Below are positions 7,783 to 44,664 of a DNA stretch of 64,000 bases, in pieces. How positions within the stretch are numbered: the first letter of the stretch is position 1; the number at the start of each line of letters is the position of its first letter. The notes under the pieces were generated by a model that saw only the letters and a list, made by a program, of their open reading frames with translations, made no database searches and was not told the origin of the DNA. Location: contig OZ004610.1 in the NCBI GenBank assembly GCA_963924565.1, forward strand, positions 25,172,001-25,236,000, given 5' to 3'. The DNA comes from Ascidiella aspersa (taxonomy: Eukaryota). Made by a program: the position numbers and the translations under genes.

Positions 7783-8624
7783 CTCTGTCTGATACTTGCC
7801 GAATGAACTCTGTCGTTTCGTGTAAGGCCTTGTCAAATAAATGTAGCGCGATAAGGGCAAAGTCAAACTGTGGGACAGAAGGAGTTATACACAGTATGGG
7901 CAGATGACATGCCTTAACCTAATGATACGACTGAGGGAAAATTAGTTATGATAAAAGCGATTATAAAAGTATTTGTATTAAAAACCTGAACTGTCTTTGC
8001 GCAATCAAGTAACGCTTTACATAACATCAGTGAACCTTGTTGAACGTTTACTTTTTTCGGGCATCTTGTTTGCGATTAATGATTAATTTTTATTGCTTTG
8101 TTTGCGTTTTCATTCTCTAGGAGAGCTTACATTAGGTAGGCCTAGATTACCATGCGAAGTGCCAAGACAAAATACGTATTGCTAGTAAACAACATCCTGA
8201 AACATAATGGATCGTTATTGATAGGTTTAATGTACCACGATCTACATTGTGATAAATCTAATTTGTTCAGTTCAGCAGGGATTACTTCTAACGTCTAGTC
8301 AAACTGTTTTTATTTTTTTTCAGTGAGTTGTAATAATTACTTTGAAGTCGTAGCCGGAGGGCTTTGTAGCCGGAGCATGGATCCGGAGCCCCGGAGCCGT
8401 GCACTTTTAACAGAGCCGGAGCTTTACGTGAAATTTAAATGGAGCTGGAGAAGGAGCTGGAGCCAGTTATTTAAAAAATAGCTTCGGCTCCGATGTATTT
8501 CATAAGATGCTATGCTACTAACCTTCCACTAATAACTGACATAATTTAACAGCAACCCTTCACAAAATTAGGAATTGTTGCCTCTTTGGCGCACCTTTTC
8601 TAACTAACTTTTTTTTACGGGTCT

Positions 8625-21221: not shown

Positions 21222-24036
21222 ATGGGTTTTTGGAGTGATTGCGGAGATATGATTGATTTGCGGAATTCTGTCCGCAGAAATGGGTGGAGTGACACTAGAT
21301 TTCAACAGGTAAGTAATAAATATGGATTACTTGCAGTGTTGTAATGACTTAAGTCAATGACTTGACTTAAGTGCACTTAAGTCACTGTTTTTAAATGACT
21401 TGACTTGACTTAAGTCTTTTGGACAAATGACTTGGGTTAAAATAAATTGTTTTAATTAAGCAATTATTTACAAAACTGCGTTATTTATACCAATCTTTGC
21501 ACATAAAAGAGTTTGCTTGTAATATGCTGCTTTTGTGTTATTTTTGACTTGAGTTTCTCATAATCATCGGAGGAGTTTTCCGGTTTTCATAATTTAAAGT
21601 TTTATTTTTTTGACAAGGGCTGGACTTGAAGTTGACTTGCTCTAATTATGACTTGACTGGGACTTGACTTGTTATTTATTCAAAAAGACTTGACTTGGAC
21701 TTAAGTTATTTTACGAATGACTTGACTGGGACTTAAGTTATTTCAAAATGACTTGTTTACAACACTGATTACTTGAGAGGTAGCATAGCCAATAATTATA
21801 GACTACAGATATATTTAGATTTACAATACAAATGTAGACTATATTCAAAGCCAGTTAATATAATAATTAATCTATAAATATCTTGTTCTGTAAAAAGTTG
21901 TATTAGGCTACGTTATTCAAGGAAATTTTTGTATAGCGCAATATTGCTGGTGCTTTTTGTAGGTGTTTTGTTGAATGTACATGATATTTAATGTTGTGAC
22001 GCTATATTTTGTTAATCGTAAACATTTCATGAAAATTTCACGTTTTCGGAAGCATCAGTGCGCAGTAAGATTCCAAACAATTGCTCAGATAAATGAAGAG
22101 TTTCAGTTATCTTTATTGCTTTACTTAGTAGTTGGTTAAAAAAATTCGTCCAATAAAATTTAAAATATTCCTCTTTAGATTGCTAGCGTCGTCATTGGTG
22201 CGTACATCACCTTGTTAGTGATCGTGGCGTCATCGGACCCAACTTTTGACTGTTTAAAGCAAATGATTTACAAAAGCGATCGAGATATTCCCCAGTTTGT
22301 CCGATCGGCGGCTCATCGACATGTGGTGTCTGGAGGTTACTGTTTCGTTTGCCAAGCATTTGTGTAAGTAATAGAAGTAACACCGTTATGTTGCCTGGAT
22401 TTTTGATTAAAAGTTACACTCTATTTCTTGAACCTACACTCTATTTCTTGAACAATTATATTTTGCTTTGGAACAATATTTTCCTAGACACAATGCAAAA
22501 CATTGCAATAACTGCAACAAGTGTATCCCTGGATTCGACCACCATTGCCCCTGGATCAATAACTGCATCGGTCGTCATAATCACAAGTAAATCGAAATGT
22601 ATATAGAATTAGTTTATAAAACACTTCCAAAAAACGAAAAGGGGAATGTTGAAACTTAAATATACGAAGCACCTGTTTAAATTTAGGGGGGTTTACTAAC
22701 AAAACAAAAAAACGCACTAGCCTATATAGTTTTAATAAACAATGTAGCATATTCTTATTTTCAATGTTGATTTGTATCATATTTTTTTAAGGACCTTCTA
22801 TGGCCTAATGATTTTATGGCTAACCGCCAAAATTTTAATGCTTCCATCTTGTATCTTTGTCTTCATCAACAGTTTTCTTAAAAAGAACATACTGGCATCA
22901 GGTAAAAACTAAGTAAAATACTGATATAGCCTCCGTTCGATGTAAAATATTTTTTGCAACTATAGTTCAAAATTGTTTTTTGATGATTAGTAAAGATTTT
23001 AATACATATCAACAGATTTCTATTGGATGACCTTTGAAAGATGTCTCACTGTACAAATCATATTGGGATTCAAGATCGCCTTTCTCTTGTTGGTAACTGG
23101 TTACCTCGTATGCATTGTCAAGTTCCATAGATTTTTACGTAAGTTTTTGTTTTGTTCGGCCGATAAAAATACTGTTTTGCATATTCTAAAAATGTTATGT
23201 TTTTATTTGGCAATGGTTGCTTAATATCCAACAGTTAAAAGTAATATCCATTTCGACAAGCGCAAAAATCAGAATATGCAATTCGGCAAGCGCCATTTGC
23301 GCTTTCGTTTTGCTTAAACCGTATCTTAAGCAACGCCTAATTTTATTTGTAAAACTGTTTCAGAATATAGTAAAGTGTTCGCAATACGTTTCAAGGTAAA
23401 CTGAATATGTAAACAGAAGATATCTCCTCGCCCCTCGCCCTATATTACTTTTCATGGTTGTTGCAATTTTGTTGTAAAGGTTTGCCAGACAATAAAGATA
23501 TTTACTTTTTCCGTTTAACACTAAGAATATTTAAATCTATTTTATAACGGCACAGGTTAAATAAATTTATTGGTTTTTTTTCAGTCAGGGAAAACCTCAC
23601 CACCTACCGAGTAAACAAGACATTGGGAAATCATGACGAATATGTGGATGACGTTGAAGAGGGTGGTGCAAATCCCCAGCCGGTAACAGACTTAGCCAAG
23701 ATGCGTTTGGTAGGGAGAACCTGCACCACTTACCGAGTAAACAAGACATTGGGAAATCAGGACGAATATGTGGATGACGTTGAAGAGGGTGGTGCAAATC
23801 CCCAGCCGGTAACAGACTTAGCCGAGATGCGTTTGGGAGCGAAAATGTGCTTCCTCTTTATTCTAAAGGCCACCGCCATCAATTATCTGGAACAGCTGAC
23901 CGATCTGACCATTGCTTTCTCAGGTGCTTACATTTCGCTTTTCTGTGTTTATTTATTGGGAATTGTTTCACGCAGAGTATTTGCTTATTGTGAAACCGAC
24001 ATAGAACTATTAAGTGATATTGGATCTGGCAAATAA
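21222..24036 (+). CDS. ZDHHC1: DHHC palmitoyltransferase, ZDHHC1/ZDHHC11-like
   Basis: Exons 21222-21308, 22179-22363, 22488-22586, 22792-22901, 23016-23138, 23585-24036, in frame with GT-AG. Motifs: RRNGWS (ZDHHC1/11 N-terminus), SSDP, YCFVC...[44 protein letters not shown]. Choice between ZDHHC1 and ZDHHC11 and the exact C-terminus are uncertain. Confidence 0.88.
21334..21767. mobile_element. hAT-type MITE with GACTT subterminal arrays, in DHHC intron 1
   Basis: 11-bp TIR CAGTGTTGTAA / TTACAACACTG; perfect 8-bp TSD ATTACTTG; absent from the paralogous site at ~47830. Confidence 0.92.
23587..23836 (+). repeat. 126-bp (42-codon) in-frame tandem duplication in the DHHC last exon
   Basis: [11 protein letters not shown](H/Q)[21 protein letters not shown](K/E)MRL occurs twice; unit starts at 23598 and 23724. 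Confidence 0.95.
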
Positions 24037-25467: not shown

Positions 25468-25757
25468 GAAAGGTCCCAACACTCCCGCTCGCAGTACTAT
25501 GGAGAAAATTAAATCCGGAGCAAAACGTTTCTTTGAAAAGCGATCCCGAGGGACTTATTTTCATAAGGCCCTTTAAACGAATGGACTCCTTTGACTTCCA
25601 GGTAGTTTAGGAATAAATACCAGTCGTGACAGTAACTATGCAATGAAATTAAGCAAACTTTTAAACGGAATCACTTATTTTCAAAATCGTCGTAAAGCCC
25701 GTGCTCGGGAATTTCTCCAGTTCCTTCGCCTGCACAATCGTCTTCATCGTCACCGCA
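25468..25757 (-). pseudogene. Decayed duplicate of the glypican last two exons, interrupted by the EnSpm element (remainder 40190-~40235)
   Basis: Matches 50130-50215 and 50565-50766 with substitutions and deletions (e.g. TTCTCCAGTTCCTTCGCC...CACAATCGTCTTCATCGTCACCGCA). Confidence 0.85.
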
Positions 25758-27404
25758 CACTGTAAACTGAAAAGGTGGATTTTAAAGGGGTGGAAATATT
25801 CCACCCCCGCCAGGGGGGTGGAATGACTTGTTTTCGTCCCTAAAAGGCAATTAATTTCGATTTATACCCCAGCTTTAGATGTATGAAAGGTGGGATTTTA
25901 TTTTTACACCCCAACGCTAGGTTAGAAATTATTTTAAACCTTAAAAGGTGATTTTAAAGGGGTGGTGTTTTCCAAAAATACCCCTGTCACTGATTTAGCG
26001 TTGGGTTAGATTTGGTTTTCCACCCACCTAGTAGTTACATCTTTAGTTTAGAAATTTAACACCTGTGTTATTGGGTTATATTATGTTAACCACCCAGCTC
26101 GATAATTACTTGTTTTTTTTTTACAGTTGACTTTACTGAAAATAGATAAGAGTGAGACAACTATATCCTTATTGTTGTGTTGAAAAGTACGGCATTCCAA
26201 GACTGAAACGAATATGTTGTCTTCGAGAATTGCATATAAGTTTAAAAAAATGACAAACCAAATTCGTGATAAACTATGAATGACTCCACATAGCTTGTAC
26301 AGTTCTTAGAATACAACGTAATTTGCGGTAATAAGAATGTTAGGCTGTTCACCAGGTGATTAAAATGAACCAATCAGAGGAAACGTATCGGCAGTTAGTT
26401 ATCCGCAAGAATAAATTGTAAATATTCATCCGCATAAATATTTTAGGGAAAAGATTCATTAAATATATTAATACATAATTGTATATCTATTAAATGTATT
26501 TATTGTTTTTAATTCAATACAGCCAAACTCAGTGTTAGTTTCAGTTATAATTTATTTTTGTATTGACGATTCGACCACATAAAAATTTATCATGTGGTCT
26601 GCGCATAGGACTTCTGCGCATAGGACTTCTGCGCAAATGACTTTTGCCCAGTAAGATTAGAGCGACTTTGTCACATGTTATTGTTAAGCAGGATGGTTAT
26701 AGAATGACTGTTTTTGCGCTGAATGATGGACCATGACAACAGTAAGTTTATCAGTATATACCTTAGGAAGTATTTTGTCTAGAGTTCGTGTTGTATATAT
26801 ATATTTTGTTTGCTATTATTATTAGCTTTTTTTGTAAGTTATTGATGTTAGCGGCGACGACGGCCGGGAAAAATGGCGTTCAAGTTGGCTTATGGTTACC
26901 CAACATACAATAATTAAAAACTGGTTGCCACAAAATCTTTGAGATGTGTTCGAAAAACCTTATTTTTGATGCTGGTCTAGAATCCCAATACAACGAACAT
27001 TATTTTGGTTAGGGTTTCTGTTTGGGTGAGGTCAAATATTAATATTTAATAGTATTGCTTAACCTACCCAAGCCCAAATCTTCGAAATTAGTTGTTCAGC
27101 TTAACTTGTGTGTTTATTAATTGCCATTAAAAAACAATTTTTGGCGCTGGTCTTTGAATCATACCACAAATCACATTATTTTGGAAAATGGAGTTAATTA
27201 GTATGCGGGTTATTTGGGTTTAGGTTAAGTATTATTATTATATTTGTTCTTACATATTTCTGCCTTCCTTGCAGTTTCAACTTTGACATGTCGTTTTGTT
27301 AGTATTAACATAAATGTGCCAGGTTCTAGACCAGCGCCATGAATTTTTTTGAAAAGTCTCAAAATTGTTCATAAAACTGTTGCAACCCTGTGAAAGCTAT
27401 AGAG

Positions 27405-28205
27405 CGGTCATGTTCAAATGGCGGATCGCGCTCCGGTTCCGGATCTTTTCAGTGTTTTGTGCGGATCTTCTAATGTACTCCTAAAAAAATAAACTTTCTA
27501 CAGTGTTTTCATGTGACTACCAATTGTCAGTGTTAATGAATTTTAAAAAAAATCAAGCATAGAACGAAACTCCCAAATGCTAATCTTTGTGAGCGTTTAA
27601 AGATATCAGTCAGCCACAGAAAGCCCCAATTCGATGTTATTGTAAGACCTAAATTCAAAACAGGGGTTGGCAACATACGACCCGTGGGCCGGATGCGCCC
27701 GCCAATGTGATTAATTCGGCCCGCTGCCTCTTTGACAAACTAGATACGAGTCCATTTCAAATACTTTTTGACTATTTTAACTTGTAAGTGCGGAAAATTT
27801 TCCCGCTTCGCGCGAATCATCTTTCTGCGTCCGCCCTGTTTACGTTTTGATGCGGTCTTTTGAACTAGATCAGCGCTTCATTGCCGTTAATGGAAAGCGC
27901 ATTAAAAAATGTTGGACATATATTTTTTCACATTTTGTATTTTCGGTAATGTAATAAAAACTTTCAAGAAATTTAAAAGAAATGCTGGTATACCTAAAAA
28001 AATCGCGCTCGCCACCTGTGCCCTGACTTACAAAGTTTAACAAACACTAAACAAGATTAATTATTAAACTTATCGCATTTACATAAATAAAGCACCATAA
28101 AAATTAAAGTGTGTCCGATATGTTTACTATTCGTATTTGGTGGATCATCATGTTGTCAGGTTTGGCTGTGGTGGATCATGGCAAAAATCATTTTGAACAT
28201 CCCTG
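27405..28205. mobile_element. Degenerate hAT-like element nested in the EnSpm 5' region (second hAT end at 27661)
   Basis: Ends CGGTCATGTTCAAA / TTTGAACATCCCTG; TSD-like CTATAGAG / CTACAGAC. Confidence 0.55.
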
Positions 28206-28793
28206 CTACAGACATCCCCCTGCATTCTAAGCATAGGATATTTTGTCATTTTAATTTTTGGGTGCTGGTTTAAAGTCCCACCACTTTTTTGGTCACCAAA
28301 ATTTAAATTGCACACTTAAAATAAATTTAATTACACTCATCATACAAACCCTAACCCAAATGATATGTGCTAATTTAATAATTGTTTGAAATGTAGTAGG
28401 ATTCTAGACCAGTGCCAATATTTTTCGGGGTTAGATCTAATCCTTAAGTTAGCTGGAGCGCCAGCATTTGGGAATTGACATGACACATGACATAAAAATT
28501 GTCATATTAGTTTCTTCTAGGTTCTTGTCTGATGTAACACCTTATATAGTCTTTACTTTGTTTCTTTAATGTAGGGCCTTATTAAAACAACTATTTGCTG
28601 TACAAATCTTAAAAATGATTTATGTTCATTAAAGCGAGAATTTAGTGCTTTGACTAAAACAGTCTATTAGTAAATTAATTTCAAAGATATTTTACAAACT
28701 TTTTTTCTTTTAATTTGCCCTATGTATTTTTCTTAGTTTGAAGTGATTGTATAAATAAAAAAAAAAAGTGAAATTAGGGTTGCCTTTTTAAAA

Positions 28794-31166
28794 ATGACTA
28801 CAGAATTTATTTGTTCGTGTGTTAACTGCAATTCATTAAAGAACGATTTAAAGACCTTTCTTTATTACTTAAGGCATGAACACAATGATGATGACCTTTC
28901 TAATATTCAATGTCCAGTTGATAACTGTGGAAAGTCATGCTCATCATACCACTCCATAAGGATTCATTTTTACAGATATCACAGGGAACTTCTGGATGTA
29001 AGACATTTTGCACCACAAACTTCCAGTTTTGATAACACTCTTGCTGTTTCTGAAGAATTACCACTTCAAGAATCAAATAAATATAATGACCCTTTTCAAA
29101 AACAGTTTTTTCTGCACTACCTTAAGTGCCGCGAAAAATATGTTCTTCCAATATCTGTGTCAAAAAGCATTATGTCAGACACAATTTCCTTACTAGAACA
29201 GTACAATGAATATTTAATAAATAAAGAGCAACATTTGCCCAGAATTTATTTAACAGATAATACTCCAAAACTTATTTGGAACAAGATATGTAGTGAAAGT
29301 GTTTATACAAGGTTTTGTGAATCCATGGGAATGGTCAAGCCAAAACAAGTACAGTTAGATTCAACAAGTCATTTTCATTATGTTCCAATGTTAAACACAA
29401 TAAAAAATTATCTTTCACATTGTGATGTGGCTGACAGCATTGGAAGAACTCAGGAATGTCATGATAAACTTATCTCCAATTACATAAGTGGTACTGCATT
29501 CGTTGCAAATGAATTTTTTAAGGGTAGAAAGAACTTAATTCGAATACATCTTTACTGTGACGACTTAGAAGTGTGTAATCCTCTTGGTTCATCTCGAACC
29601 ATTCATAAACTGACATGTTTTTATTTTACTATTGGAAATGTTGAACAAAAATATTTGTCTGCATTGAGAAACATTCACTTACTACTTGTAACCTATTCTT
29701 CGCATGTTAAAAAGTTTGGATATGATGTTATTTTAAAACCATTTAGCTTAGATATGGAAATATTGGAAAGGGATGGTGTAACAGTAAGTGTAAAAGATGG
29801 TCGACAGTTACATTTGTATGGTGGAATTGCCACAATATCTGGCGATAACCTAGGTCTTCACGATATTGGTGGTTTCCGACGCTGTTTTTCCAGTGGAAGA
29901 ATTTGTCGCCACTGTATGTGTTCTTATCCTGATCTTTTGAATAAACCACATGAATGTATGTTTACTTTACGTGATGCAAATACTCACAAATGGCATGTAG
30001 AAAGCATTAAGAAAGATGCATCATTAGTTTGTGTGTATGGCGTTAGGTCGTCTCCCGTTTTTGGAACTCTGCTTTCGTTTGATGTAATTAACTGTCTTCC
30101 TCCTGATATTATGCATGATGTTTTGGAAGGGGTTATTCCAATAACAGTTGAGATTATAATTAACCAACTTCATAAACGCAATGTATTGTCAAGATCACAT
30201 CTGATAAAGCTTGTTAAAGGTTTTAAGTTTGGAAAAAATGATCAAAAAAATAGACCTGTTGCCTGGATTGCGGGTAATTCCACATCTCTAAATGCACATG
30301 AAGCTTGGTGTCTGTTCAGAGTATTGTCTTTTATCATTGGTGGAAAAGTTCCCCATGATTGTCAAGTCTGGGAGCTCTACAAACTATTATCTCTGATTTG
30401 CGAAATAATTTTTTCTCCGGAAATAGAATCCGAATGGATAAATTTGCTAGATGTTTATGTTCATGACTTTTATGCTCTTGTAATACAGTTGGAATCTTCT
30501 CAGATAAAACCAAAGTTTCACTATATGCTACACTACCCCAGGTTATTGGTAAGGTATGGTCCTTTGCGCCATTTATGGTCAATGAGATTTGAATCTTTTC
30601 ATCAACGCTTAAAAAAAGTTGTTAGGCAGTCCTGTAATTTTAAAAATATAACCCTTACAATTGCTCAACGAATACAAGGTCTAAAGTGTTGGGAACACAG
30701 AAATAAGTGCTGCTTACTTGAGGACTGCTTAATACCTGATCAAACATCTGAAACCTTCAAGGAATTTAATTTAAATACTTTACCCCTCTCTGTGATTCAA
30801 AAACTTGTAAACTTATTTGGTAATTTGAACAAATTATCATGTCATTGTGTTTCAAGTTTACTTTATAATTGTTACCTGTACAAAATTGGAGATACATTTG
30901 TTGTTGACATTGTGTGTGATATACCTGTTTTTTTTAAAGTGACTTCAATACTGCTAATTGAGGACGTACATTTTTTATTCTGTCAAATATTTGAAGTTCG
31001 ACATTTTGATGATCATTACCATGCATATTGTCTTTATGCTAGAAGTATGTTTTGGCATGTCATACGAGTTGGTAAAGAATTAAGTTCTGCAACTGATGTT
31101 TATGAAATTAATAATCTTATTTATGTTAAACTAAAATTCCTGCCTACTAAGTTAAAAAAGCCTTAA
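28794..31166 (+). CDS. EnSpm/CACTA-type DDE transposase, 790 aa, intronless, with N-terminal C2H2 zinc finger
   Basis: CPVDNCGKSCSSYHSIRIHFYRYH zinc finger; LYCDDLEVCNPLGS..HKL; SGDNLGLHDIGGF...CRHC; DIMHDVLEG; KPKFHYMLHYP...YGPLRHLWSMRFESFH, motifs typical of animal CMC-EnSpm transposases; lies between CACTG TIRs. Confidence 0.92.
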   Translation: MTTEFICSCVNCNSLKNDLKTFLYYLRHEHNDDDLSNIQCPVDNCGKSCSSYHSIRIHFYRYHRELLDVRHFAPQTSSFDNTLAVSEELPLQESNKYNDPFQKQFFLHYLKCREKYVLPISVSKSIMSDTISLLEQYNEYLINKEQHLPRIYLTDNTPKLIWNKICSESVYTRFCESMGMVKPKQVQLDSTSHFHYVPMLNTIKNYLSHCDVADSIGRTQECHDKLISNYISGTAFVANEFFKGRKNLIRIHLYCDDLEVCNPLGSSRTIHKLTCFYFTIGNVEQKYLSALRNIHLLLVTYSSHVKKFGYDVILKPFSLDMEILERDGVTVSVKDGRQLHLYGGIATISGDNLGLHDIGGFRRCFSSGRICRHCMCSYPDLLNKPHECMFTLRDANTHKWHVESIKKDASLVCVYGVRSSPVFGTLLSFDVINCLPPDIMHDVLEGVIPITVEIIINQLHKRNVLSRSHLIKLVKGFKFGKNDQKNRPVAWIAGNSTSLNAHEAWCLFRVLSFIIGGKVPHDCQVWELYKLLSLICEIIFSPEIESEWINLLDVYVHDFYALVIQLESSQIKPKFHYMLHYPRLLVRYGPLRHLWSMRFESFHQRLKKVVRQSCNFKNITLTIAQRIQGLKCWEHRNKCCLLEDCLIPDQTSETFKEFNLNTLPLSVIQKLVNLFGNLNKLSCHCVSSLLYNCYLYKIGDTFVVDIVCDIPVFFKVTSILLIEDVHFLFCQIFEVRHFDDHYHAYCLYARSMFWHVIRVGKELSSATDVYEINNLIYVKLKFLPTKLKKP

Positions 31167-31227
31167 ATATATTTTTAAAGGATTGTAATTTATAGAATTT
31201 CTAATTGTAAACTATATAAGTGAAAAC

Positions 31228-34200
31228 ATGGCATGTTCCTATCATGTAACCTATGAAAATTCAAAAAAAATTTTAAATGTAAATTGTCCTGAAAAAATTT
31301 ATGATGAAGTAACTCTAGTGTTTGGAGTTACCAAGTTTGATCTCCAATCCTATGCACCAGAATTTGATGACTGGGTGGATTTCGATAAATGCATCACCAC
31401 TGGTAGACTAAAAGTTGTTTGTCAGGATAATTCAAATCACATACTGGCAAATATTAATTCGTCACCCAATTCATCAATGAATAGCAGCGCTACCACTGTT
31501 GAGTATGATGGCAGTGAAAGAGAAGAATCAATTAAATGCAGCACTTCTGATAGTTCTGATGATGAACACAAAATTAATTGTTTAAAACCAAAGGTTTGGC
31601 CAGTGGTGTATAACATCCCCACATTTCCCAAAACTCTATCTGCAGAGTTGTCAACAATTGAAAATGACAAACAGCTCTATGTTGGAGGAAAAATTAGAAG
31701 AAAAATAATTTCTATTATTTTTGATGACCTATGCAGCTATACCGAGTAAGTACAATGTATTTCCCTATATATTTTTATTTTTAGTGCGATATTTAGTTAT
31801 AGTCTGTGGATAAAAAGCAAGGTAATTTTTTAGTGGTAACTAATTAAGTTAAATAAAATTAGTATGAATAACACAATGGGCATTGTGTCTTTGCTAATTA
31901 AAACTGTACATCTTTACTTTAATGCAGTGGTTCCAAACCTGTTTTTAAGGTGACCCATTTTGAAAAAAAAATTAGTTTGGTATTATCTTGCGACTTAAGC
32001 AATTGTCATATTATCATACAAGATTGCATTGCAAACAAACTGCGCTACAAAGCACTTACTTTTTCCGAAAAGAATATGTTTATCAAATCACTGATGAGAT
32101 AGCTTTGCTTGCTTGATGTCAGCGATTTGTTGAAATCGAGGGATTATTTTGCTTAAGCATATAGACCCATGTCACTGTTAACTTCCAGCCGGTTTCCCTG
32201 ATTGGTTTTCATATTTTTGTGTTTATAAATTCCAGTTTTGTGATCTCTTCACGTTTTGAATTTTTTGTTGTTATTTTTTCGCCCAAGATACATAATGGCT
32301 GAAAAACATTCGACCCCAAAAAATAATCAGGCGACCCAACGTTGGGTCGCGACCCATGTGTTTGGAACCACTGCTTTAATGTATGAAAAACTCTATTTTA
32401 TGTTTCTTTACAAGAAAATATAAGCAGTGAGATTTTATCGCAAATATTGTGCATGTACATCACATGACCAAGCTGAAAGTTGCAAAAATCTATCATACTG
32501 TAGGGGTGGGGTCAGATTAATGAGTCTTCATTTATATAATTGCCAAGATGAATCGACCACACTCCTACAAGATTTGAGATGGCCTGTCTTCGTGAGGCCA
32601 TTCAAGTCCAATTCTTTCCTTTAGTTCAGATACATGAACAGTCAATTTTTGCTGTCTTCAGTCAAAGCTGTAAAAGCCTCTCTCTGCACAAGGCAGTACT
32701 GGGTGATACTGGTTGATACTGTTTTTTATTCGATTGTGCGACTATACTTATTGGCGAAAATATTTCTAAAATGCACAGGAAATATTGACGTAGATATTCT
32801 TACGATTTTCAATAATAAATCACGTGACAACAAGGCGTGGTCTAAACCTTTTTCTCTCGACTCTTATAGACGGAAATAATATTTTTGTCCCAATATGGCT
32901 TGAACAAAAGTAACAAGGCATTCGTTGCAAACTCTAGCAAGAGATATCGGCAATCGAATTTAAACAAAAACTTTCATGACGCAACATTAAGGCGATAAAA
33001 CAAAGAATTAATTTGATGTGCTGACGTGTTGCGACAAATACTCCCTTTGCAAAGGTTTTGCAGTCATTTCGAATATATAGGAATGACATTATTTTCCAAT
33101 TGTTTTCGTGTGTTGTGTTTCAGCTGTTGTGAAATGCTTATGGAGCATTGGACGCGAAATTGTCCGATCATTTAACGCATTTGCGCAATTGTTTTTGGTT
33201 CGATTCCTGATTCCTCGAGAAAATTTTCGTTTGTGCCTGAACTGGCAAGGAGGATTTTGATGTCAGCGTTCGCTGGTTGCTTGAAATGTGTTTCATCGAC
33301 ACGCCAGAGCAGTTTGCTGTGGCTTTTTGCTTTTCAGGAAATCTGTGCGGCTTGCAGGAGAAAATCCCTGCACGGTGCGTTGCAATTCTGACGCCACCAG
33401 GAAGCCGTTGTTTTTGCGCGTTGCATCTCGATCTATCGCTTTGTCCAACGCTTGTTGTGTTTGTTTTCTGAAATTTCAAAATATTTTTCCGGCAGATGTG
33501 TGTTCGAAATTATCTGTAGCAACACTCAGTATTCAAGTTATTTATATTTTGGTTATAGACACACATATTTTCTATACTTATATATATATATATAGGCGCG
33601 ACAGGTTACACTTAAAGTTTGAGACAATTAATTACTGGAATATATATTTACTCACGTTACACATCTTTTGCGATTCAATACAAAATTAAATTCTATTGAT
33701 TTTTTACATTGAGCAACATTTCCTTAAAAATTTGCATTTTTTTTAGTTTGCACAATTCGTTCAATGTAAGTTTTAAAATAACGACGCATCACAAGAAAAT
33801 ACGCTTTGAAGTTGCTGCTTATTCACTATTGCTTTCAACAAAAGGCAGGAAATGGGGTGTTCCTAAAGTTGTGATTTGAAAGCTAATGTTTCGCGTGTGG
33901 ATAAATCATTATGCTTGATACGAGATGTTTAAACTCGTGTGTAAACGCGGCTGCGTGATGAGAGAAAAACAGACAAAAACCCAAAACGTACCAAATGTTT
34001 AAAAGAATTCGGAAATTTAACACGAAATTATTTTGTGCACAACAAAATTAAGTCGTGATTCACAAGTTTAACGCGTTGATTTCAAACTATTGAGCTCCAA
34101 GCACAAAAATTAAGCTCTTTTAACATTTATCAAAAGATCGTGCGATCGACGTTTAAGCTTAGACTTCATAGATATAGACTATACATAATTTGCGAAATGC

Positions 34201-37200
34201 GATACATAATGGTTTAATAAAAAGTCGCATTAAAACAATTTACAGACCTTTCAGTCGATATTTTTACTCATTATATATATAATTTTGTTTTTTTGTTTTT
34301 AAATGTATAATAGATTTTTCACCTGATAAACTAGGCAGAATCAGTTATTGTGAAATCCATAATTCCGTTTCGTTTTCCATGATTCCAAACAGTGGTGATG
34401 TCTTTATCGGCAACGCTTGTTTGTATTTCGTGTTTCGAATTCCAAGCAAATGCTTTGCTGACGCTATGGAGCGTCTCTTCACGTATCTTTCGATGAGATT
34501 AATTTCTTCTAAAGCTGGCTTCTTGCAAGTTCCAAACATGACAGTTTTTAGGCGGCCGTTTGTAGGTGGTCCATACAGATTTAGGCACATATTTTTTCTT
34601 TGAGCTTCGTTTCTTCAGTCTTCTTGGGAAAGTAGTTTGCAGGTGGTTCGTTCCTCACTCGCGGGCATCAATTTTGAGGAGGTGTGGGTCCGGATTAATG
34701 AGTCTTCATTTATATAATTGCCAAGATGAATCGACCACACTCCTACAAGATTTGAGATGGCCTGTCTTCGTGAGGCCATTCAGGTCCAATTCTTTCCTTT
34801 AGTTCAGATACATGAACAGTCAATTTTTGCTGTCTTCAGTCAAAGCTGTAAAAGCCTCTCTCTGCACAAGGCAGTACTGGGTGATACTGGTTGATACTGT
34901 TTTTTATTCGATTGTGCGACTATACTTATTGGCGAAAATATTTCTAAAATGCACAGGAAATATTGACATAGATATTCTTACGATTTTCAATAATAAATCA
35001 CGTGACAACAAGGCGTGGTCTAAACCTTTTTCTCTCGACTCTTATAGACGGAAATAATATTTTTGTCCCAATATGGCTTGAACAAAAGTAACAAGGCATT
35101 CGTTGCAAACTCTAGCAAGAGATATCGGCAATCGAATTTAAACAAAAACTTTCATGACGCAACATTAAGGCGATAAAACAAAGAATTAATTTGATGTGCT
35201 GACGTGTTGCGACAATACCTTATTTTAGGCAATGTAGGGTATGTCATCAAGACTAAAGTTTTGACAAATGTATACCATTCTGTTTACGTAAGTTTGAGTT
35301 ATGATGGTTTTTATATTAGGGCCTAACTTTCCTTTTTATTCATTGACAAATACGATGTACTAAAAAAACAACCCTTTTTGCTTGTTTCTGCATTTGTTAA
35401 GTTTATATAACAGAAATTTATTCTTTAGATATCCTTCATCATATCAATATAGAGAAGTCTGCAGTGCTTTAGTTCGCAAGTATCCAGTGCTTAGAGACAG
35501 ATTTTCTAACACAGGCTGTTATTTTGTAAGTTAACGTTTTTATTTATCAGTTTACAGCTACTTAAAGGCAGCTAAAATAGCCTAATAAAGTAGCCTGTAC
35601 AGTGTAACTCAGGTGTCGGGAACCCCTGTCATGCATGCCAAAAGTGGCATGCGGGATGATTTTTTAGGGTACGCTAAAGGGCAAGAGTATTGTGTTCGTG
35701 ACAGTTCGTTTTTTTTTTCCAAGGTTAGGGTATCTTTACAAAATTTAACTTATGAAATTAGATTTAATGGCATCTCCCAAGTTCTGTAAATTAGATTTCA
35801 GTTAACAGCAAGGCTGCGGAGTTGGACATAAGACTAGGTAAAATTACCGGAGAATAGCATATGGTGAAATGTTTTCCATGACTCCTATAAGTTGAGTGCC
35901 GACATCTATTCTATTTTAGTAAGTAAATCTGGGAAAAAACAGGCTGTAGAGTCTTAGCTGTACTCGGGACTCGATGTAATTGCACATTTGGCCGGAGTCA
36001 GACTCGGGTTGTTTTTAACAGACTGCACAGCCCTGGTTGCCAGTGCAAAACCAAAAATAGAAAAATGTTTGGCATGCGAGTTGTTGATATTTTGAAATTA
36101 TTTATAAACTGACACACTACATACAAAAGGTTGCCGACCCCTGGTGTACATCATAATCTTAGTTTATTTATAATATTTTGTATGAATATAGGTTACTTGG
36201 ATTAAGATGTTGCGAACAAAATTCAAAGATTGGCGTCGAAATTCAATTAACAATAAATATAGAGAAGAAATGAAAAAAAAATTTGGTCACCAAAATAGAA
36301 AAAGGAGCAGCATACCAGATGAAGAAGCTGAAATAGTCAGCAAAAAACGAAATGTCAGCACCAGCAGAAATGTAAAGAAATTTTGTTTTTCTGCAGTTAA
36401 TGTTATTTATATTTTCATTATTATTACAAAGGTTGGCTAAAGTTAGCCGTCAGGAAATTGATATGTCAGACTGGAATACTTTTTTATTATCTTTACTATA
36501 GCTCAAAATTTTTGAAAGTTTGTATGTGTTGTTTTTGGGTGCAAACTAGTATATATAATATATATTTTTTGTTTATAGCAGGATATTGCTGATACAGAGG
36601 ACGAATTTGGGACCAAAATACATGTTGATTACCTCAAAAAAGAATTTTTAAAGAAAGAACCTTGTCAACAGTCCATTGAAGATAGATTGGAGCGAACGTA
36701 CAGTAGCAGACGAGCAGATGTTTTAAGTGGTGGTTCAGCAAAAGAAATTTTAGAAAGATATTCACCCTTGACTACTTCTAAATGGGTGTGTATGTTTATA
36801 ATGAGCAATTCTGTATTTAACTTGAGTTGTATTGTTGATTTTTTCCACAATATATCTATTTATGATGTAAATCTTTTAGGAATTGTCAATAGTAAAACAT
36901 GATTTTGAATTATCTATGGTTTAATTACTTATTTGTAACAGTTATTTTTTTATAAAGATTCTGTTTGAAATGGGCAAAATAGTTGGAATGAACATAGATC
37001 AACGACTGAGAGAGCCACTTTTGTCAAAAGCCAAACGAATGATTCGATGGTCTAGCATCTCTAATTCCTACATGGATATTTTAGGTAAGTATATAAAAAT
37101 TTTGCTAGAATCAGGTCCACAGGTTTCAGTACGACAAAATAGTAAGATAAGGGTCATAATGTTTATGTGTTTTTGTGAAATTTATTTGTAGAACTACAAT

Positions 37201-39155
37201 TTACTCTACCCAGTTTAAATGCATGCTACATTGCTACATTCTGATGTGGTAAAATTTAAGGACTGTAAAGGTAGTTTAAACCATTTCATAGCTGCACTCA
37301 AAGCCAAGCAGCCAACAGATAGATAAATAACTAAAGAAACTCAGTCCTATTTATGAAAAAAAAATTTACTTTTTAGAAATGGAAAACGCATGGATTCTTT
37401 TTTTGCCAAGTATATTTAAAGAGAATCTGGATCATTTTTTTATCATTGAAAAGGTAATGTTGTGGAATATAATTATAACAACATTAAACATTTACAATGA
37501 GCTTCACATAGGAGTCAAGAACTAATTATAGCTCCATTAATTAGTGCACTGGCCGATTTGGCCCGCAAAGTTCCAATTTTTTGACCCGCGAACTGATACT
37601 CTGCTTTGCTGTAATCTAGCACTATCGATTTTTGTTTTTTTGGTATTGTAATTGACCAAAAAACTTCGTAAATGATCCTCTGTGATTTCATAACTACCGT
37701 AGCTTTTTTTCATAAGGTTAGTATATATGCCATAGGCCAGCAGTTGTTGACCTGGTGGGCCTAGGATGGGCGCAAGCTCCAAGTTAATATTTAAATTTTT
37801 TTGCATTGATTCTAATGGTTTCGTTTAGGTTTTACACCACTCCTACAGCGGTGTAGGCTACAAAGTCTGTTTTTGCCAATACATTGAAACAGCAATTTTT
37901 TTCATGGTTCCCGAGACCGACAAAACCCTTACTATTTTCAAGTTGTCGTAGTGATATTTAATTGAAAATGCCGAATTGCTTTTTGTAGGGTGGCGAAAGG
38001 CATAGGAAAATTACCAAAGCGGGCGCGGCTGAAAAAACTTTTAAGAACGACTGTAATAGGCTATGTATCATTTGCAAGCAATAAGCCTAAGAATTGCTAC
38101 TTAAAAACATTGGCCCGCAAGATAAAAAAAATATTGTTTTTGGCCCGCGATGAAAAGAAGTTGGACCACGCTGAACTAGGGTATCAGTAAAGTTAGGCTA
38201 TTGTAAGATTTAAAATAGTGACCTTTGCCATATACTTAAACCATTATCTCTCCAAACGTAGAAACAATGTTGGTTTGACCCTTACATGAAATCTTAGGCC
38301 ATATGGTTTCAGTTAGCCACCCTAGGCTTCCGTTGTAAGGATTGGTACAAATTCTGTAAATCTTGAAAAAAGCCAATTTTCTTTTTTTAAAACTATTTCA
38401 TGTTTAACTTTATGTTTTTTAAACAAATGTTGTGTTGACCATAGCATTTTTAAAATTGTTTTCGAATAATATGTAAGTTTTGTCAACCAGTCCTTTTTAA
38501 ACTATAAAAATATCTTTAAATTTGTTTCATAAAAATGTGTGGCAGCCCTGCACGTAAGATTAATATTTGTGCCATTATCGTATGCATGTTTAAAGGCCAG
38601 AGTACACATAAACAAATTGTTTATTTGCCTAGTTGAGTGATAGAGACTTTTATTTTCTTTTTGCGGAACCTTTATATTTCGGTTAATGAAGCAAAGATCT
38701 AAATATGGACGACATCTTTTTTTCAATTTTTTGGCATACTGTCCTTATCTTGCCTTGATTACAAGGAAGGCGACTAATGTTAGCAAGATTTTCATAATTT
38801 TTTTCATTGTTTTTTATATTATGTCTTATTATTGTTGGTCAGTATTACTGTAGATGACCAAACCACAATAATAATTTTTGCTTATTTTTAACTTTCATAG
38901 GAGTCTACATCACCGTATCCGGTAATAAAAATTTGCAGTGATCAATCAATTTCTGCGCATGTAGATGCTTCTACTATATCTGTAGATGGAGACTTAATCA
39001 CTGCAGTAGCTACGGCTATTTCAGCATATTGGGTTTTTAATATTGTTATACCACATGGCTGTACAAAAACAATGGCTTTTTTATGTGGTTACATACTGCA
39101 GCTTGGCGGCGTTAAAATTCCAAGCAGTGTTTTACAGGTCATAAACAGTTTGTAG
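31228..39155 (+). CDS. EnSpm second (accessory) protein, SAMD3-like, ~486 aa, 7 exons
   Basis: Exons 31228-31745, 35429-35525, 36192-36371, 36579-36785, 36958-37084, 37377-37453, 38901-39155 (1461 nt, no stops, GT-AG). Motifs: LQSYAPEFDDWVD; YPSSYQYREVCSALVRKYPVLRD...WIKMLRTKFKDWRR; RTYSSRR...EILERY; LPSIFKE; AYWVFNIVIP...TMAFL. These resemble SAMD3-like proteins linked to animal EnSpm elements. Confidence 0.85.
31925..32373. mobile_element. hAT MITE nested in EnSpm ORF2 intron 1
   Basis: TIRs CAGTGGTTCCAAAC / GTTTGGAACCACTG; perfect 8-bp TSD CTTTAATG. Confidence 0.92.
32499..35214 (-). mobile_element. Non-autonomous LTR retroelement (~2.7 kb) nested in EnSpm ORF2 intron 1
   Basis: Direct repeats 32499-33036 and 34675-35214 with TG...CA termini; 4-bp TSD ATAC (32495-98, 35215-18). 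Minus-strand PBS-like TGATGCCCGCGAGTGAGGAACGAACC (34670-34645) resembles the complement of an elongator tRNA-Met 3' end. PPT-like AAAGGGAG at 33048-33041. No gag/pol ORF recognised. Confidence 0.88.
35610..36143. mobile_element. hAT MITE in EnSpm ORF2 intron 2, with a second MITE nested at ~35809-36034
   Basis: Ends CAGGTGTCGGGAACC / GGTTGCCGACCCCTG; TSD-like GTGTAACT / GTGTACAT. Confidence 0.7.
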
Positions 39156-39819
39156 TTTTGTAACAAAGTATATGCCAATTATCACCTTTAAAAGTTCATT
39201 CCTTAGTAAGCATATGATTAATGTTTACTTTGATTTAATTTAAATGTATTATAACTACATAAACATATTTTTGCATAGCTTCAGTAAAAGTTCTTTTCTA
39301 AACTTTTAATTTCAAAAGTTGTAGTGTTATATGTTTCCCTTTAGACCCACATTATTAGCTTTTTTCGTTTGATACTGTTGTAAAACAATATATTTTCAAC
39401 TGCTACATGTATGTTTCTATTTGTTAAATTAACCTTCGGAATAACCATCTCAGCCAAAATTCTGTGACATGTTGTTTTCAGATCTGTTCTATTTTGTTGT
39501 TAAAACTTTCTTTTCTGCAATGTTTTTTTGACACCCAAACAATATGTTATGTTAGTTTTTGGATGTTTAGAAAGAGTTTAGATTTGAACCCTGATTAAGA
39601 GTGTTGTCATCATGTTAACTATTTGTTCTTTATTTTTGCGTTTCAACTTTTTTGGAATTCTGCCATGTTTTGGTAATGTTGTAAAATATACTATACATTG
39701 TTTATGTCATTAGTATGTGTGATTATACAATTGGTGGATTGTTAAATCCACCCTGAGGTGGAAATGCGAAAATCCACAATGGTTTGTGGTGTTTTACAAT
39801 GGGGAAGATTTTCTTAAAT

Positions 39820-40189
39820 CAAGGTGGATTCGTACAATTCCTTTCCCTTCGGGGTGGATTAACATAGGGTGTAAACAGCCCTATCCGCCCTAAAGGTTAG
39901 AACGTTAAATCCACCTTTGGGTGGTTTACGGAAAATAGAACCCATGGGCATAAAAATTGATCCACTAGCGAAGGTAGAAATTTCCACCTTTTCAGTTAGC
40001 AGTGCAGGGTGGATTCGTACAATTCCTCCCCCGTTGGGGTGGATTAACATAGGGTGTAAACAGCGTTATCCGCCCTGAAGGTTAGAACGTTATATCCACC
40101 TTAGGGTGGGTTACGGAAAATAGAACCCAGGGGCATAAAAATTGATCCACTAGCGAAGGTAGAAATTTCCACCTTTTCAGTTTACAGTG
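39820..40189 (+). repeat. 185-bp tandem duplication of the EnSpm right terminus, including the TIR
   Basis: 39820-40004 and 40005-40189 are closely similar; the inner copy ends CAGTTAGCAGTG (mutated TIR), the outer ends CAGTTTACAGTG. Confidence 0.92.
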
Positions 40190-41589
40190 CACGGTGTCGG
40201 TACTGAGCTTCTGGGATTAAAGTTGGTTGTTGATTTTTTAATTCTTTGCGGCGACGCAAATGCCAAGCATCAGTATAAAAGCGAAGCTTTTGGGACCAAA
40301 TTCCGTCCACCGAACTTTATATGAACTTAATGTCAACAAAACACAAGAGACAATAGCATTAATCAAATCAAATTTAATTAACCTAAGTCATGTCTTTGTG
40401 GTGTTTTCCAATTTCGATGAAATCTTGCTGAGAACTAATAATAATACACCTAATAATAAGATCTACTGCAGTCGGCGACCCAACCTAATCAAACGTAGAC
40501 CCATTTTTAGGTAGCGACCCATAGGTTGAGAAACACTACACCAATAAGGATGTCAAACCTGCGGCCAGCCTGATGCTTACGTGCGGCCCACCACTTATTC
40601 TCAGTAGTTGTTATTAAAAACAATTGTTTCGATTATCATCAAAACGTGTAGAACGCGCAGCATTTGATGTGGGCCTCATCTCATATCTTTCTAAAACTAT
40701 AATCGAGTCTAATGTCGCATTTCAACGGCCATTGAACACTAATTGTGCTCCCCTCATCAAAGCAAGTTATGTGTTTTCTGAATGTGTGCGTTTGCGTACC
40801 GTTTTAAGAAAATATAGCTGCTCAAAGGCGTCGTACCATGGCATGATACGACAAGCAAACTCAAGTTTTCGCGTTTCGCACGATTAGATCGAGATTGACT
40901 TATATATTTGCGTTCACTCTAGAAGAGCGGGAGATTTCACTCTAGAAGAGCGGGTGTTTATAAGTTAGGTTGTTTAATGACGTCACGATATGACATAACT
41001 TATGACGTCACCCCCTTTAATTTAATATGTTTTGCGGCCAATAAAAATTTTTAAAATGGCAATGCGGCCCATTGTGCTAAAATTTGGTCATCCCTGCCCT
41101 ACACTTAGACGTGCTGTGCAGTTTAATAAATGTTCTCTATTTGAATTTTTTATTCCGATGGTTAACGAGTGCACTGAAAACTGACAAATTTTGTTTAATA
41201 AAATCACGTTTGCTTGAAGAATGAGGTTTAAACCTTTACAGTAATCTATATGGCCGTCCGTAAGAGTGATATAGAATAAAAAGGCGTCAAAAAAATTCAA
41301 AAAAACAAGACACTCGTAATTTTTAGAAAAAAAACGAAAAATACACGATAAAGTATTTTGAATAAAAAATGAATATTAATATTCTTGCAGCTAGCATTGG
41401 AATTCTCTGTTTGTAAAAACGCCCTTTTCAGGCCTTTTTTCACGGGGCTATATAATCGTCGTCAAAAAGTTTAGACACCCTTAATATGCAATCCATTAAG
41501 GCATGGGGACTTATTCCTCGGCATAGAGTTAATTGCTACTCCAGTTTGTTATACAACTCCAGTTTTAATTTGACCAATTTAGCGCTTTG

Positions 41590-42500: not shown

Positions 42501-43707
42501 GCAAAGTTTACCGAAAACTGAAAAAAATCAAGTCTCTGTGAAAATAAACTTGCACAGTTACAATAACCTACTGCACTACAACGAATAAGTTCAATGCCGA
42601 ATCACTAGGAAATATGATGCTACAAATACAATTGAACGTATTGGAGCACCTCGTTGCTAATAAGAAATGAATGTTTCTAAAAAAACATTTAAATATGCAT
42701 GTTACTGATAATTGCGATTAGTTTTTTTTAGAAGATGTTAAAATATGCAAGTTTACTAGCCTAAATTTAAAAATAACACCATCTCAAAAACTAGAGCCAA
42801 TTCGAGAGAACGAATGTAATATTTGGATTCAGTAGCCCAGAAACATTCAAGAATTCTTGTAATATTTTTTGTATTGAACAAAAATTATTTTGGTTGGTCA
42901 GTGTTTCAATTCTTGATTTGTAACCGTTGATCAGCTACAGAATAAAATAGATTCGGACTTTGCCCCTCCCGCCTTTTTATTGGCAAGATGGCTTTTGAAT
43001 TCTTAGTGAAATCTCGCCGACCTAACCGCGACGATCGACAGATGCATCTTGTTAGCATTAAGTGGTATTTTACCCCTGACGTGTTAAAATGATTGGGAGA
43101 AGTGGCGCTTTTGGCGAAATTCACTTAGTTTACAGCAATGTAAAAAAAATATGTACGTTACTGCATATTTGGAAGAGTTATATCTATATATCATAACATT
43201 ATTTTGTCATATAGAAATAAATGTTTATAGGAATAAGTGACAGGCCAGTATTCTTAAGTGGACGACAGTTAAAATTACTCTAGCAAGCCCTTTTAACGGG
43301 TGATATGCTGCATAAGCGTCAGCGTTTTGTATATAATGTTGGTTTTGTGGTCAGCAGTATAATCCTATGGTAAAAAATAATGTGCAAGAAAAACATTTCA
43401 TCTTAAACCGGTAAAAACAGAACCAGTTTCGGCAAAGGGTTTTTGAGATAGGTAATGTAAACACGACATAAGTTTGTAGATAATATAAACACTTTACAAT
43501 ATGAATTAGGTCGCAAAAAATGCTATGCGAAGCTACTTGTTTGCTTTCATGTAAAATCATTTTGAAATCTAACTTTATTTTTCAGCGCAGAACAAATTCT
43601 CCAGCTTTAAAATTTATAATTATCCAACTTGAAGAATTTATTAGTATATAACTATTTGAAAAACTCTTAATCAGTATTTCATTTCTGAATCGTGGAAACG
43701 TCCAGAA

Positions 43708-44664
43708 ATGCTGAAAGGCAACGTGTTCGGTAATTTTTCTCGACTAGGTCCACCCGAATTATTCGCAGCAGCGCAGGTCTTAAACGTTATTGAAATTATC
43801 GGCCTGATTTGGCTCGTCAGCAGCTTCGTGGTTTACGGAATACGCAGCGGAAAATGGAAAAAGGCTGGGAACTCTTCGGAAGAGTTGAAGGTCAACCATC
43901 GACCGATTTACTTTGTCAGCCTTTCAACGCTTGTTTTCGGCCTAATAGGTTTGGTTTCTGACCAAGTTGTTCTCAACATAGAACATGGCGTTGGGCAAGA
44001 GGCTTACTGCAAGATTGCCACCATTTTTGGCATTATTTGTTTGCTATATTTCTTTTTATGTTATTACTTGCTTTTATGGCTGAGACTCCATTACCTGTAT
44101 GCGAATATATCCATTATACAGGACATCAGCCCGCTGTTGAAAATTTTCAAATGGCTGATGCTGTTGTTGTACCTTTTTAGTTCCTTCGCGATTCAGTTTT
44201 TTTACGCGTACGTTCATGCGACCGAAGATTCTGGAACTGGCTGTACCGACGACGGCCCGGTTTTGGTTCCCCGTTGGCCGGTGTATTTGCTGGTCAGTGT
44301 AATGTGGGTGGCACGGGCAACGTTGATTTTCCAGTTTCTCTTTCCGCTGCGCTCTCATTTGCGAGGCAGACACGCGAAAGAGATTTTGCGGATCGCCAAA
44401 CGTTTAGCAGCGATCACATCTTGCGGTTTAGTTTTCGACTTGGCTGTTTTGTTGGTCATAAAGTTGCATCGTGACGAAGCGGCGCATCTTTTCATCTTAA
44501 TTTTCGGTATCGACGTGTGTCTCCACGTGCTCTTCGTTGTGCTCTCTTTTGAAAATTGGACGGAAGTAGTCGCTTTGAGCAACTGGGTCAAAAGAACCCG
44601 CCCGCGCGACTCTGGCCCTGCGCAAGCTGCTACAGTTGAAGCAGTAAGCACGACGAACATTTAA
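43708..44664 (+). CDS. Intronless seven-transmembrane GPCR-like protein, 318 aa
   Basis: Single ORF with about 7 hydrophobic segments; Cys before TM3 (AYCK) and in ECL2 (GTGCT); LLWLRLHYLY at the end of TM3; no canonical DRY/NPxxY. Confidence 0.85.
   Translation: MLKGNVFGNFSRLGPPELFAAAQVLNVIEIIGLIWLVSSFVVYGIRSGKWKKAGNSSEELKVNHRPIYFVSLSTLVFGLIGLVSDQVVLNIEHGVGQEAYCKIATIFGIICLLYFFLCYYLLLWLRLHYLYANISIIQDISPLLKIFKWLMLLLYLFSSFAIQFFYAYVHATEDSGTGCTDDGPVLVPRWPVYLLVSVMWVARATLIFQFLFPLRSHLRGRHAKEILRIAKRLAAITSCGLVFDLAVLLVIKLHRDEAAHLFILIFGIDVCLHVLFVVLSFENWTEVVALSNWVKRTRPRDSGPAQAATVEAVSTTNI

Follow-up and report, generated by a model that had tools for sequence, protein, structure and literature searches.

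The element and its insertion site

The stretch of DNA analysed here, called the window throughout, comprises 64,000 nucleotides from Ascidiella aspersa (GenBank assembly GCA_963924565.1, contig OZ004610.1, positions 25,172,001 to 25,236,000 of the forward strand). It carries a young, full-length animal EnSpm/CACTA element with two genes, a transposase (open reading frame 1, ORF1) and a spliced second gene (ORF2) downstream of it (Table 1). Both inverted ends start with CACTG, the 22-bp pair is perfect, and the dinucleotide CA stands on either flank. The 2-bp target duplication is real, because a paralogous stretch at 50570-50798 of the window, matched by both flanks of the element and thus an empty site, has CA only once. 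Of eight CACTG-type elements with ends read unfiltered, seven show a duplication of the same length. On both strands together, the terminal 900 nt hold 16 copies of the hexamer GGTGGA and the inner 13.5 kb hold 5. With its CAC..GTG ends, 2-bp duplication and subterminal arrays, the element belongs to the EnSpm/CACTA (CMC) group. The perfect terminal repeats, the target-site duplication and the EnSpm/CACTA type proposed in the original prediction, which had been made from the letters of the window alone, are therefore confirmed by the ends, the empty site and the subterminal arrays, together with the transposase motifs described below.

The right end contains a tandem duplication whose two 185-bp units (39820-40004 and 40005-40189) are 92% alike, leaving a degenerate inner terminus at 40004; the duplication is present in both sister copies described below, while an older copy on C2 aligns only up to the inner unit. 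The target site itself (25751-25757 and 40190-40196) is palindromic, the symmetry extending five bases to the left and right of the duplicated CA, and no such palindrome was found at the flanks of the other copies read.

Table 1. Annotated features of the EnSpm/CACTA element and its target site, in window coordinates
Feature	Position	Strand	Support or remark
Whole EnSpm/CACTA-type DNA transposon, 14,432 bp	25758..40189	+	Ends and duplication; two sisters share the exact terminal bases
Left target duplication CA, 2 bp	25756..25757	+	Single copy at empty paralogous site
Right target duplication CA, 2 bp	40190..40191	+	Single copy at empty paralogous site
Left terminal inverted repeat, 22 bp, GGTGGA at its end	25758..25779	+	22/22 match to right end
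Right terminal inverted repeat, 22 bp	40168..40189	-	22/22 match to left end
Left subterminal region, GGTGG/CCACC motifs as direct and inverted pairs	25758..26100	.	9 motifs in first 400 nt versus 1.2 per kb inside
Right subterminal region, including 185-bp tandem duplication	39730..40189	.	13 motifs in last 500 nt
MITE-like insert, 5′ region	~27661..28212	.	In both sisters; boundaries by eye; older copies do not span the region
ORF1, intronless 790-residue transposase, one open frame	28794..31166	+	D256/D351/E600, C371-x2-C374, H576-x3-H580; model pLDDT 87.5
ORF2 exon 1 (residues 1-172): weakly PB1-like, conserved domain at the N-terminus, then Ser-rich linker and first part of helical middle domain	31228..31745	+	
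hAT-like MITE, 449 bp, 8-bp duplication, intron 1	31925..32373	.	Not in older C2 copy
Nested LTR element, ORF2 intron 1, without long coding frame	32499..35214	+	4-bp duplication, TG..CA ends, LTR pair
ORF2 exon 2, middle domain	35429..35525	+	
MITE-like insert, intron 2	35610..36143	.	In both sisters, not in older C2 copy; boundaries by eye and from older copy
ORF2 exon 3: third helix of middle domain and basic linker	36192..36371	+	
ORF2 exon 4	36582..36785	+	In-frame alternative acceptor possible 3 nt upstream
ORF2 exon 5	36958..37084	+	
ORF2 exon 6	37377..37453	+	
MITE-like insert, intron 6	37546..38174 (approximate)	.	In both sisters; C2 copy without insert, flanks overlapping 8 bp
ORF2 exon 7: conserved C-terminal domain, stop codon	38901..39155	+	
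LTR, long terminal repeat; MITE, miniature inverted-repeat transposable element; pLDDT, predicted local distance difference test.

A predicted DDE transposase

ORF1 is a single uninterrupted frame of 790 codons, as originally proposed, and is predicted to encode a DDE (Asp-Asp-Glu) transposase with a RAG1/Transib-like fold, its structural model matching RAG1 with an E value of 1.8e-11 and Transib with 3.9e-4. D256, D351, C371, C374, H576, H580 and E600 are invariant in 40 of 40 aligned transposases, and we infer that D256, D351 and E600 are the catalytic acids. The partner of ORF1 is not a RAG2-like propeller and its target duplication is 2 bp, whereas RAG1/Transib-type duplications are 5 bp. 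Sequence identity to RAG1, Transib and ProtoRAG, which are placed in the CMCT clade (PMC12730594; here and below, published sources are cited for the parts of them that were covered), is only 9-14%. The paired cysteines and histidines fit the signature given for the EnSpm group in the same source, namely C(2)C with H(3-4)H.

A protein search with ORF1 returned 79 relatives that are 23-41% identical to it. Ciona intestinalis supplies the best of the named ones (36-37%), and Transposase_21, DUF4218 or Plavaka labels are attached to three of the 79. Pfam found no transposase family in ORF1 itself and nothing above cut-off; among the 40 aligned relatives, at E values up to 0.01, it found Transposase_21 in 2, DUF4218 in 4 and Plavaka in 6. 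The N-terminus holds two C2H2-type zinc fingers, whose ligands are retained in 29-37 of the 40 aligned transposases, though finger 1 of the window copy has Tyr25 where its relatives have His.

The second gene and its conservation

ORF2 is predicted to comprise seven exons joined across six GT-AG introns and to encode 485 residues followed by a stop codon, in agreement with the seven-exon model first proposed (there about 486 residues). The exon structure is shared with family B, a 7.4-kb element family of this genome (C7:23.81 Mb and C8:15.74 Mb) with the same layout as the window element. Although the two ORF2 proteins are only 31.6% identical, all six introns of the window model recur in family B in the same phase; four of them fall on the identical alignment column, the other two lie no more than 3 columns away, and family B has one additional intron. 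Against the older C2 copy, the ratio of nonsynonymous to synonymous divergence (dN/dS) is 0.30 over 296 codons (Fisher p 9e-5), with a dS of 0.116 that is close to the intron divergence of 0.107. ORF2 is thus an element-borne gene under purifying selection. The nested inserts that were recognised, an LTR element and several MITE-like sequences, lie in introns or in the 5′ region, none of them in coding sequence, as the original prediction had stated.

Outside this genome, we searched the surroundings of related transposases at the best 80 of 415 loci. A profile built from two ORF2 models matched downstream of the transposase in 20 of the 45 loci with at least 1.5 kb of downstream sequence, and an iterated profile found an ORF2 homolog beside the transposase in 38 of the 80, with no match to reversed peptides. 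The 38 loci form 32 distinct groups, with ORF2 downstream on the same strand in 33 and upstream in 5, and ORF2 is retained beside transposases that are only 25-40% alike. The presence of ORF2 relatives at 38 of 80 loci indicates that animal EnSpm elements carry the second gene as a regular component. An ORF2-like match was likewise obtained in all eight transposase families examined in this genome, three of the matches being weak.

In families A and B, GGTGGA clusters at both ends; in families F and G its place is taken by other end motifs (GAGCCA and AACCAA). Such family-specific motifs fit a reader and a motif that change together, whichever protein does the reading. In family F (G000:C7:14.36 Mb and G000:C1:30.24 Mb; L062-L065), which has CACAG ends and GAGCCA as its subterminal motif, the weakly ORF2-like gene points away from the transposase.

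Several further copies were noted in this genome. In the family B copy at G000:C7:23811533-23818960 (L049-L050) both frames are open, all splice sites are present and the transposase keeps the motif of finger 1, whereas in the twin copy on C8 the ORF2 start codon reads ATA. A two-gene copy of family C at G000:C8:25.26-25.28 Mb (L041-L042) lies between two inverted repeats, each roughly 550 bp long and 90% alike. One 7.4-kb family without a transposase (G000:C2:21454185-21461644 and G000:C6:23220522-23227963; L163-L166) is represented by two copies that are 99.7% alike, with 24-bp CACTG inverted ends that look intact and different 2-bp duplications, and keeps an intact-looking ORF2 homolog with 37-63% identity to the window ORF2, depending on the exon. 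At G000:C2:8.23 Mb (L169-L170), a single frame joins the zinc-finger start of a transposase to the first domains of ORF2, and is probably a deletion derivative. No host-domesticated ORF2 was found by an insensitive search in which exon 4 gave 15 matches, those examined all lying in element-like settings.

Sister copies, nested inserts and the state of the window copy

Two sister copies share both ends with the window element. The first (C3:31072542-31083500) is 0.49% diverged, has TA as its target duplication, and lacks the end of ORF1 and ORF2 exon 1. The second (C7:664996-685905) is about 99% alike, has mismatched flanks, has lost the exon 6 donor and carries a 10-kb insertion (G000:C7:665611-675661, 4-bp overlap); a divergence of 4.2% obtained for this sister is an alignment artefact of that insertion and was not used. 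Over 10,092 shared sites, private changes number 29, 28 and 33 in the three copies, so that they came from one source at approximately one time.

All four MITE-like inserts are common to the three copies. The older C2 copy, which is about 85% alike, lacks three of these inserts although it aligns in their flanks. Among 40 scored candidates, the 449-bp MITE is 99% identical only to the copies borne by the sisters and at most 82% identical to any other match, from which we conclude that it was copied as cargo. The LTR element in intron 1, by contrast with the MITEs, is present in the window copy and in neither sister. Its LTRs, about 535 bp long, differ by 6 mismatches and, with 40 of 40 scored candidates elsewhere matching it over at least 1.5 kb at 88-98%, it belongs to a young family with dozens of copies. 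The earlier suggestion that the element carries other transposons as cargo is confirmed by the MITEs, which both sisters share.

The original prediction described the element as apparently intact and autonomous. Its frames, its twelve splice sites and its ends are indeed whole, but a private change in a zinc finger weakens the second part of that description. Six missense changes distinguish the window copy from both sisters, three in each gene. One of them, Tyr25, is unique to the window copy and replaces the first His of finger 1; both sisters keep that His, as do 33 of the 34 proteins in which this alignment column is occupied, and the C2H2 pattern is consequently matched only by finger 2. 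ORF1 also has Cys730 in place of a Gly found in 24 of 40 relatives, though Cys occurs in 5 of the 40 too. It is almost an even question, tilting slightly towards no, whether the window copy is already disabled and looks intact only from its youth. Besides Tyr25 and Cys730, an already disabled copy would be consistent with the one-base insertion that shifts the ORF1 frame in both sisters, with the 2.7-kb LTR element in ORF2 intron 1, no copy including that LTR element having been found, and with the private changes in all three copies, by which none of them gave rise to another since. Set against this are the intact catalytic residues and finger 2, in addition to the frames, splice sites and ends, and one damaged finger need not abolish activity.

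Possible function of the second protein

The ORF2 protein begins with an N-terminal domain of about 70 residues, continues through a Ser-rich linker into a helical middle domain (residues ~124-222) and a basic linker, and ends with the helices of exon 4 and a C-terminal domain. Residues 206-265 form a basic stretch with 18 Lys/Arg and 7 Asp/Glu. When the middle domain of an intronless ORF2 homolog was modelled, four helices were predicted (pLDDT 86), and a structural aligner gave capicua as its best match with a Z score of 5.9, all matches scoring below 6; Z scores below 8 may reflect only a common arrangement. Homeodomains, mostly in complex with DNA, make up 20 of the 50 top structural rows (Z 4.4-5.9). 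The three-helix, homeodomain-like fold of the model hints at DNA binding. Nothing in ORF1 corresponds to the middle domain (hhalign probability 0.3%). Exon 4 starts about 45-50 residues past the end of the first helical motif and may form the second of a tandem three-helix pair, by analogy with the plant arrangement described below; its profile matched only the TFIIF helical domain, with an E value of 0.02.

For the N-terminal domain, the originally proposed PB1/ubiquitin-like fold finds weak support: Pfam matched PB1 in 2 of 19 homologs, but with an E value no better than 0.036. A profile of this domain searched against sequences in the PDB gave the BILBO1 N-terminal domain at E 0.49, and a predicted two-copy complex scored 0.00 with an uncertain fold. 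Searches against PDB sequences returned nothing convincing, whether with the ORF2 homolog P0080 (522 residues, from outside locus L123; E 1.3) or with the profiles A7 (0.024), A9 (0.031), A5 (0.021) and A6 (0.86).

Two-gene animal CACTA elements, and the idea that their second product is an analogue of TnpA, are already in print. SmTRC1 and its relatives are animal CACTA elements with 2-bp duplications, and a spliced second product acting like TnpA was proposed for them in 2006 (PMC1636069). Full-length Takifugu CACTA elements encode a transposase and a protein of unknown function (PMC9191631), and ENS1_Cis of Ciona savignyi has CAC ends and 2-bp duplications (PMC6004678). All of these resemble the window element in their CAC..GTG ends, 2-bp duplication and type of transposase. 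In the parts of these sources covered, the second proteins of SmTRC1 and Takifugu are assigned no domains and are not linked to SAMD3-like proteins, and the parts covered of PMC9004415 and PMC9341512 add nothing on the second gene. The second protein of PMC1636069 is described there as having no similarity to other animal elements, whereas ORF2 has homologs at 38 of the 80 outside loci. In plants, the DNA-binding domain of TnpA consists of two three-helix helix-turn-helix motifs about 45 residues apart, flanked by linkers and splice junctions, and this architecture occurs in proteins of animal elements as well (bioRxiv 10.64898/2026.08.24.746577).

The window element shares short terminal repeats and subterminal motif arrays in direct and inverted pairs with maize En/Spm, whose two proteins are TnpD and TnpA, and with the TnpA system of Arabidopsis Spm. 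As in maize En/Spm, a transposase is followed by a multi-exon second product, for which a three-helix module is predicted here too. It differs from plant En/Spm in its intronless transposase, its N-terminal C2H2 fingers and its 2-bp duplication, the usual target duplication of plant CACTA elements being 3 bp. Plant TnpA families show no sequence match to ORF2, and plant TnpA acts through plant demethylases.

On the reading that we favour, the element would work much like maize Spm. The predicted DDE enzyme encoded by ORF1 would cut and paste at the CACTG ends, and ORF2 would bind the GGTGGA repeats near both ends and help to assemble or switch on the transposition complex. The middle domain (residues ~150-222) would read DNA with a three-helix module of the plant TnpA kind, and oligomerisation may run through the N-terminal domain. 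The window copy, which has drifted since it landed (the LTR element and six missense changes), may depend on proteins supplied in trans or only supply them. We assign a probability of roughly 0.58 to a TnpA-like role of ORF2, a role that the original prediction had also proposed; a basic three-helix domain that hints at DNA binding speaks for it, but the structural matches reach Z 5.9 at most.

Several observations weigh against a TnpA-like role. Pfam found no family above cut-off in the ORF2 exons or homologs, and ORF2 gave no match to plant TnpA. The folded middle domain is that of a homolog and not of the window ORF2 itself, spidroin domains score as high as homeodomains in the structural comparison, and Foldseek gave no match at E up to 0.001 and nothing below E 1.6. 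Forty-two of the 80 outside loci, many on short contigs, yielded no ORF2, and selection on ORF2 appears weaker against two other old, decayed copies (dN/dS 0.58 over 184 codons and 0.80 over 138). Animal elements are described as usually carrying the DNA-binding domain in fusion with their transposase, TnpA-like proteins being apparently confined to flowering plants (bioRxiv 10.64898/2026.08.24.746577). GGTGGA also lies within the terminal inverted repeat itself, and the conserved zinc fingers of ORF1 could read such a G-rich motif.

It is accordingly conceivable, although we consider it unlikely, that end recognition falls entirely to the N-terminal fingers of the transposase and that ORF2, instead of reading GGTGGA, is a useful extra with an anti-silencing, activating or chromatin-targeting function. 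The finger ligands are conserved in most aligned transposases, as noted above, and Transib, among the nearest solved folds, is a one-protein transposase. Against such a division of labour, the most conserved part of ORF2 is predicted to be a basic, homeodomain-like three-helix bundle, and the gene has been kept beside widely diverged transposases (25-40% alike). Maize, moreover, requires both proteins for transposition (cited in PMC1636069).

That ORF1 and ORF2 form one gene spliced into a fused enzyme is improbable. In favour of it, the two frames are only 61 nt apart, the fusion called typical of animals in the preprint cited above would accord with it, and two of four Daphnia gene models (P0099 and P0101) join a C2H2 finger to an ORF2-like body. 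Against it, the Daphnia models have only been predicted and could, like the C2:8.23 Mb locus, have arisen by deletion. ORF1 ends in a stop codon and its homologs align to about residue 780-790, and the start Met of ORF2 keeps its place in families A, C and D as well as at several of the outside loci. The two genes, moreover, point apart in family F, and ORF2 lies upstream of the transposase in 5 of the 38 outside loci. A splice acceptor precedes the ORF2 start in two of three families of this genome and not in the window copy, against a background of 40%.

A possible link to SAMD3-like proteins

The original prediction called ORF2 SAMD3-like. In the Atlas, a look-up on language-model features (filter ‘named’), a chordate SAMD3-like cluster was the best named match of P0080, scoring 0.93 with 209 of 256 features. 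P0080 is itself 20% identical to the window ORF2 over 195 residues (BLAST E 3e-6). On the other hand, even with E values up to 1 allowed, Pfam found no SAM domain in ORF2 exon 1 and none in 19 N-terminal homologs, and the Atlas cluster with a SAM domain scores only 0.75 for P0080; a CIDE-N cluster ranks third for the same protein. Exon 7 alone returned only unnamed chordate clusters from the Atlas (0.96-0.97, low recognition), and a word-based search with it gave 42 candidates, none at E up to 0.01. A profile search with the middle domain gave 19 matches, none of them named SAMD3, and a cluster look-up of ten proteins had the same outcome, so that vertebrate SAMD3 was returned by none of these exon 7, middle-domain or cluster searches.

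A kinship of ORF2 with SAMD3-like proteins is hinted at by this one language-model match through P0080. Because the SAM domain is missing, we do not file ORF2 as SAMD3 proper; its N-terminus is weakly PB1/CIDE-like instead. No paper linking SAMD3 to transposons was found, though Repbase entries and subscription papers may already describe such proteins. Tentatively, and with odds of about one in three, the second gene of animal EnSpm elements may be the missing animal TnpA, a separately encoded tandem helix-turn-helix protein that would coat the subterminal repeats by means of an exchangeable N-terminal polymeriser (PB1-like here, SAM elsewhere) and that is ancestral to vertebrate SAMD3 and to many SAMD3-like genes.

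Neighbouring genes

A glypican gene lies on the minus strand at 50130-63174 of the window, with a Pfam Glypican match at 61068-61271 (E 5e-12) and 3′ exons that are likely at ~50670-50785 and 50130-50440. The stretch 50570-50798, which represents the empty site, is likely a 3′ exon of this gene, as judged from its Ser-Gly sites and anchor-like tail. Since the flanks of the element match this glypican-type 3′ exon, the element would sit in a decayed duplicate of the end of that gene. Partial duplicates of the glypican 3′ end were seen at the insertion site, at G000:C4:24.99 Mb and at 26.41 Mb.

Three further candidate coding regions were noted. On the plus strand, a 334-codon intronless frame at 43660-44664 has several hydrophobic stretches and resembles a multi-pass membrane receptor, with no Pfam match at E up to 1, and a 162-codon frame at 23548-24036 contains a direct repeat of about 40 codons; sequence similar to the latter lies beside the glypican-like duplicate in L153. 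On the minus strand, exons at 279-617 and 7324-7884 resemble a gene of the 3-beta-hydroxysteroid dehydrogenase family, the Pfam match of the second exon being weak (E 0.007).

Implications

The literature covered assigns no demonstrated role to the second protein of animal CACTA elements, and near-identical young copies carrying both genes in this genome make the question of what ORF2 does directly testable. The old MITEs shared among the three copies illustrate clearly how one transposon can multiply others. Should ORF2 read the end repeats, transposition by two proteins in the manner of TnpA would not be confined to plants, and the fused-domain view of the 2026 preprint would have to be qualified. 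If the link to SAMD3 holds, many SAMD3-like gene models would be transposon genes, and SAMD3 would be a tamed transposon DNA-binding protein; vertebrate SAMD3 would thereby gain a first mechanistic guess, namely DNA binding.

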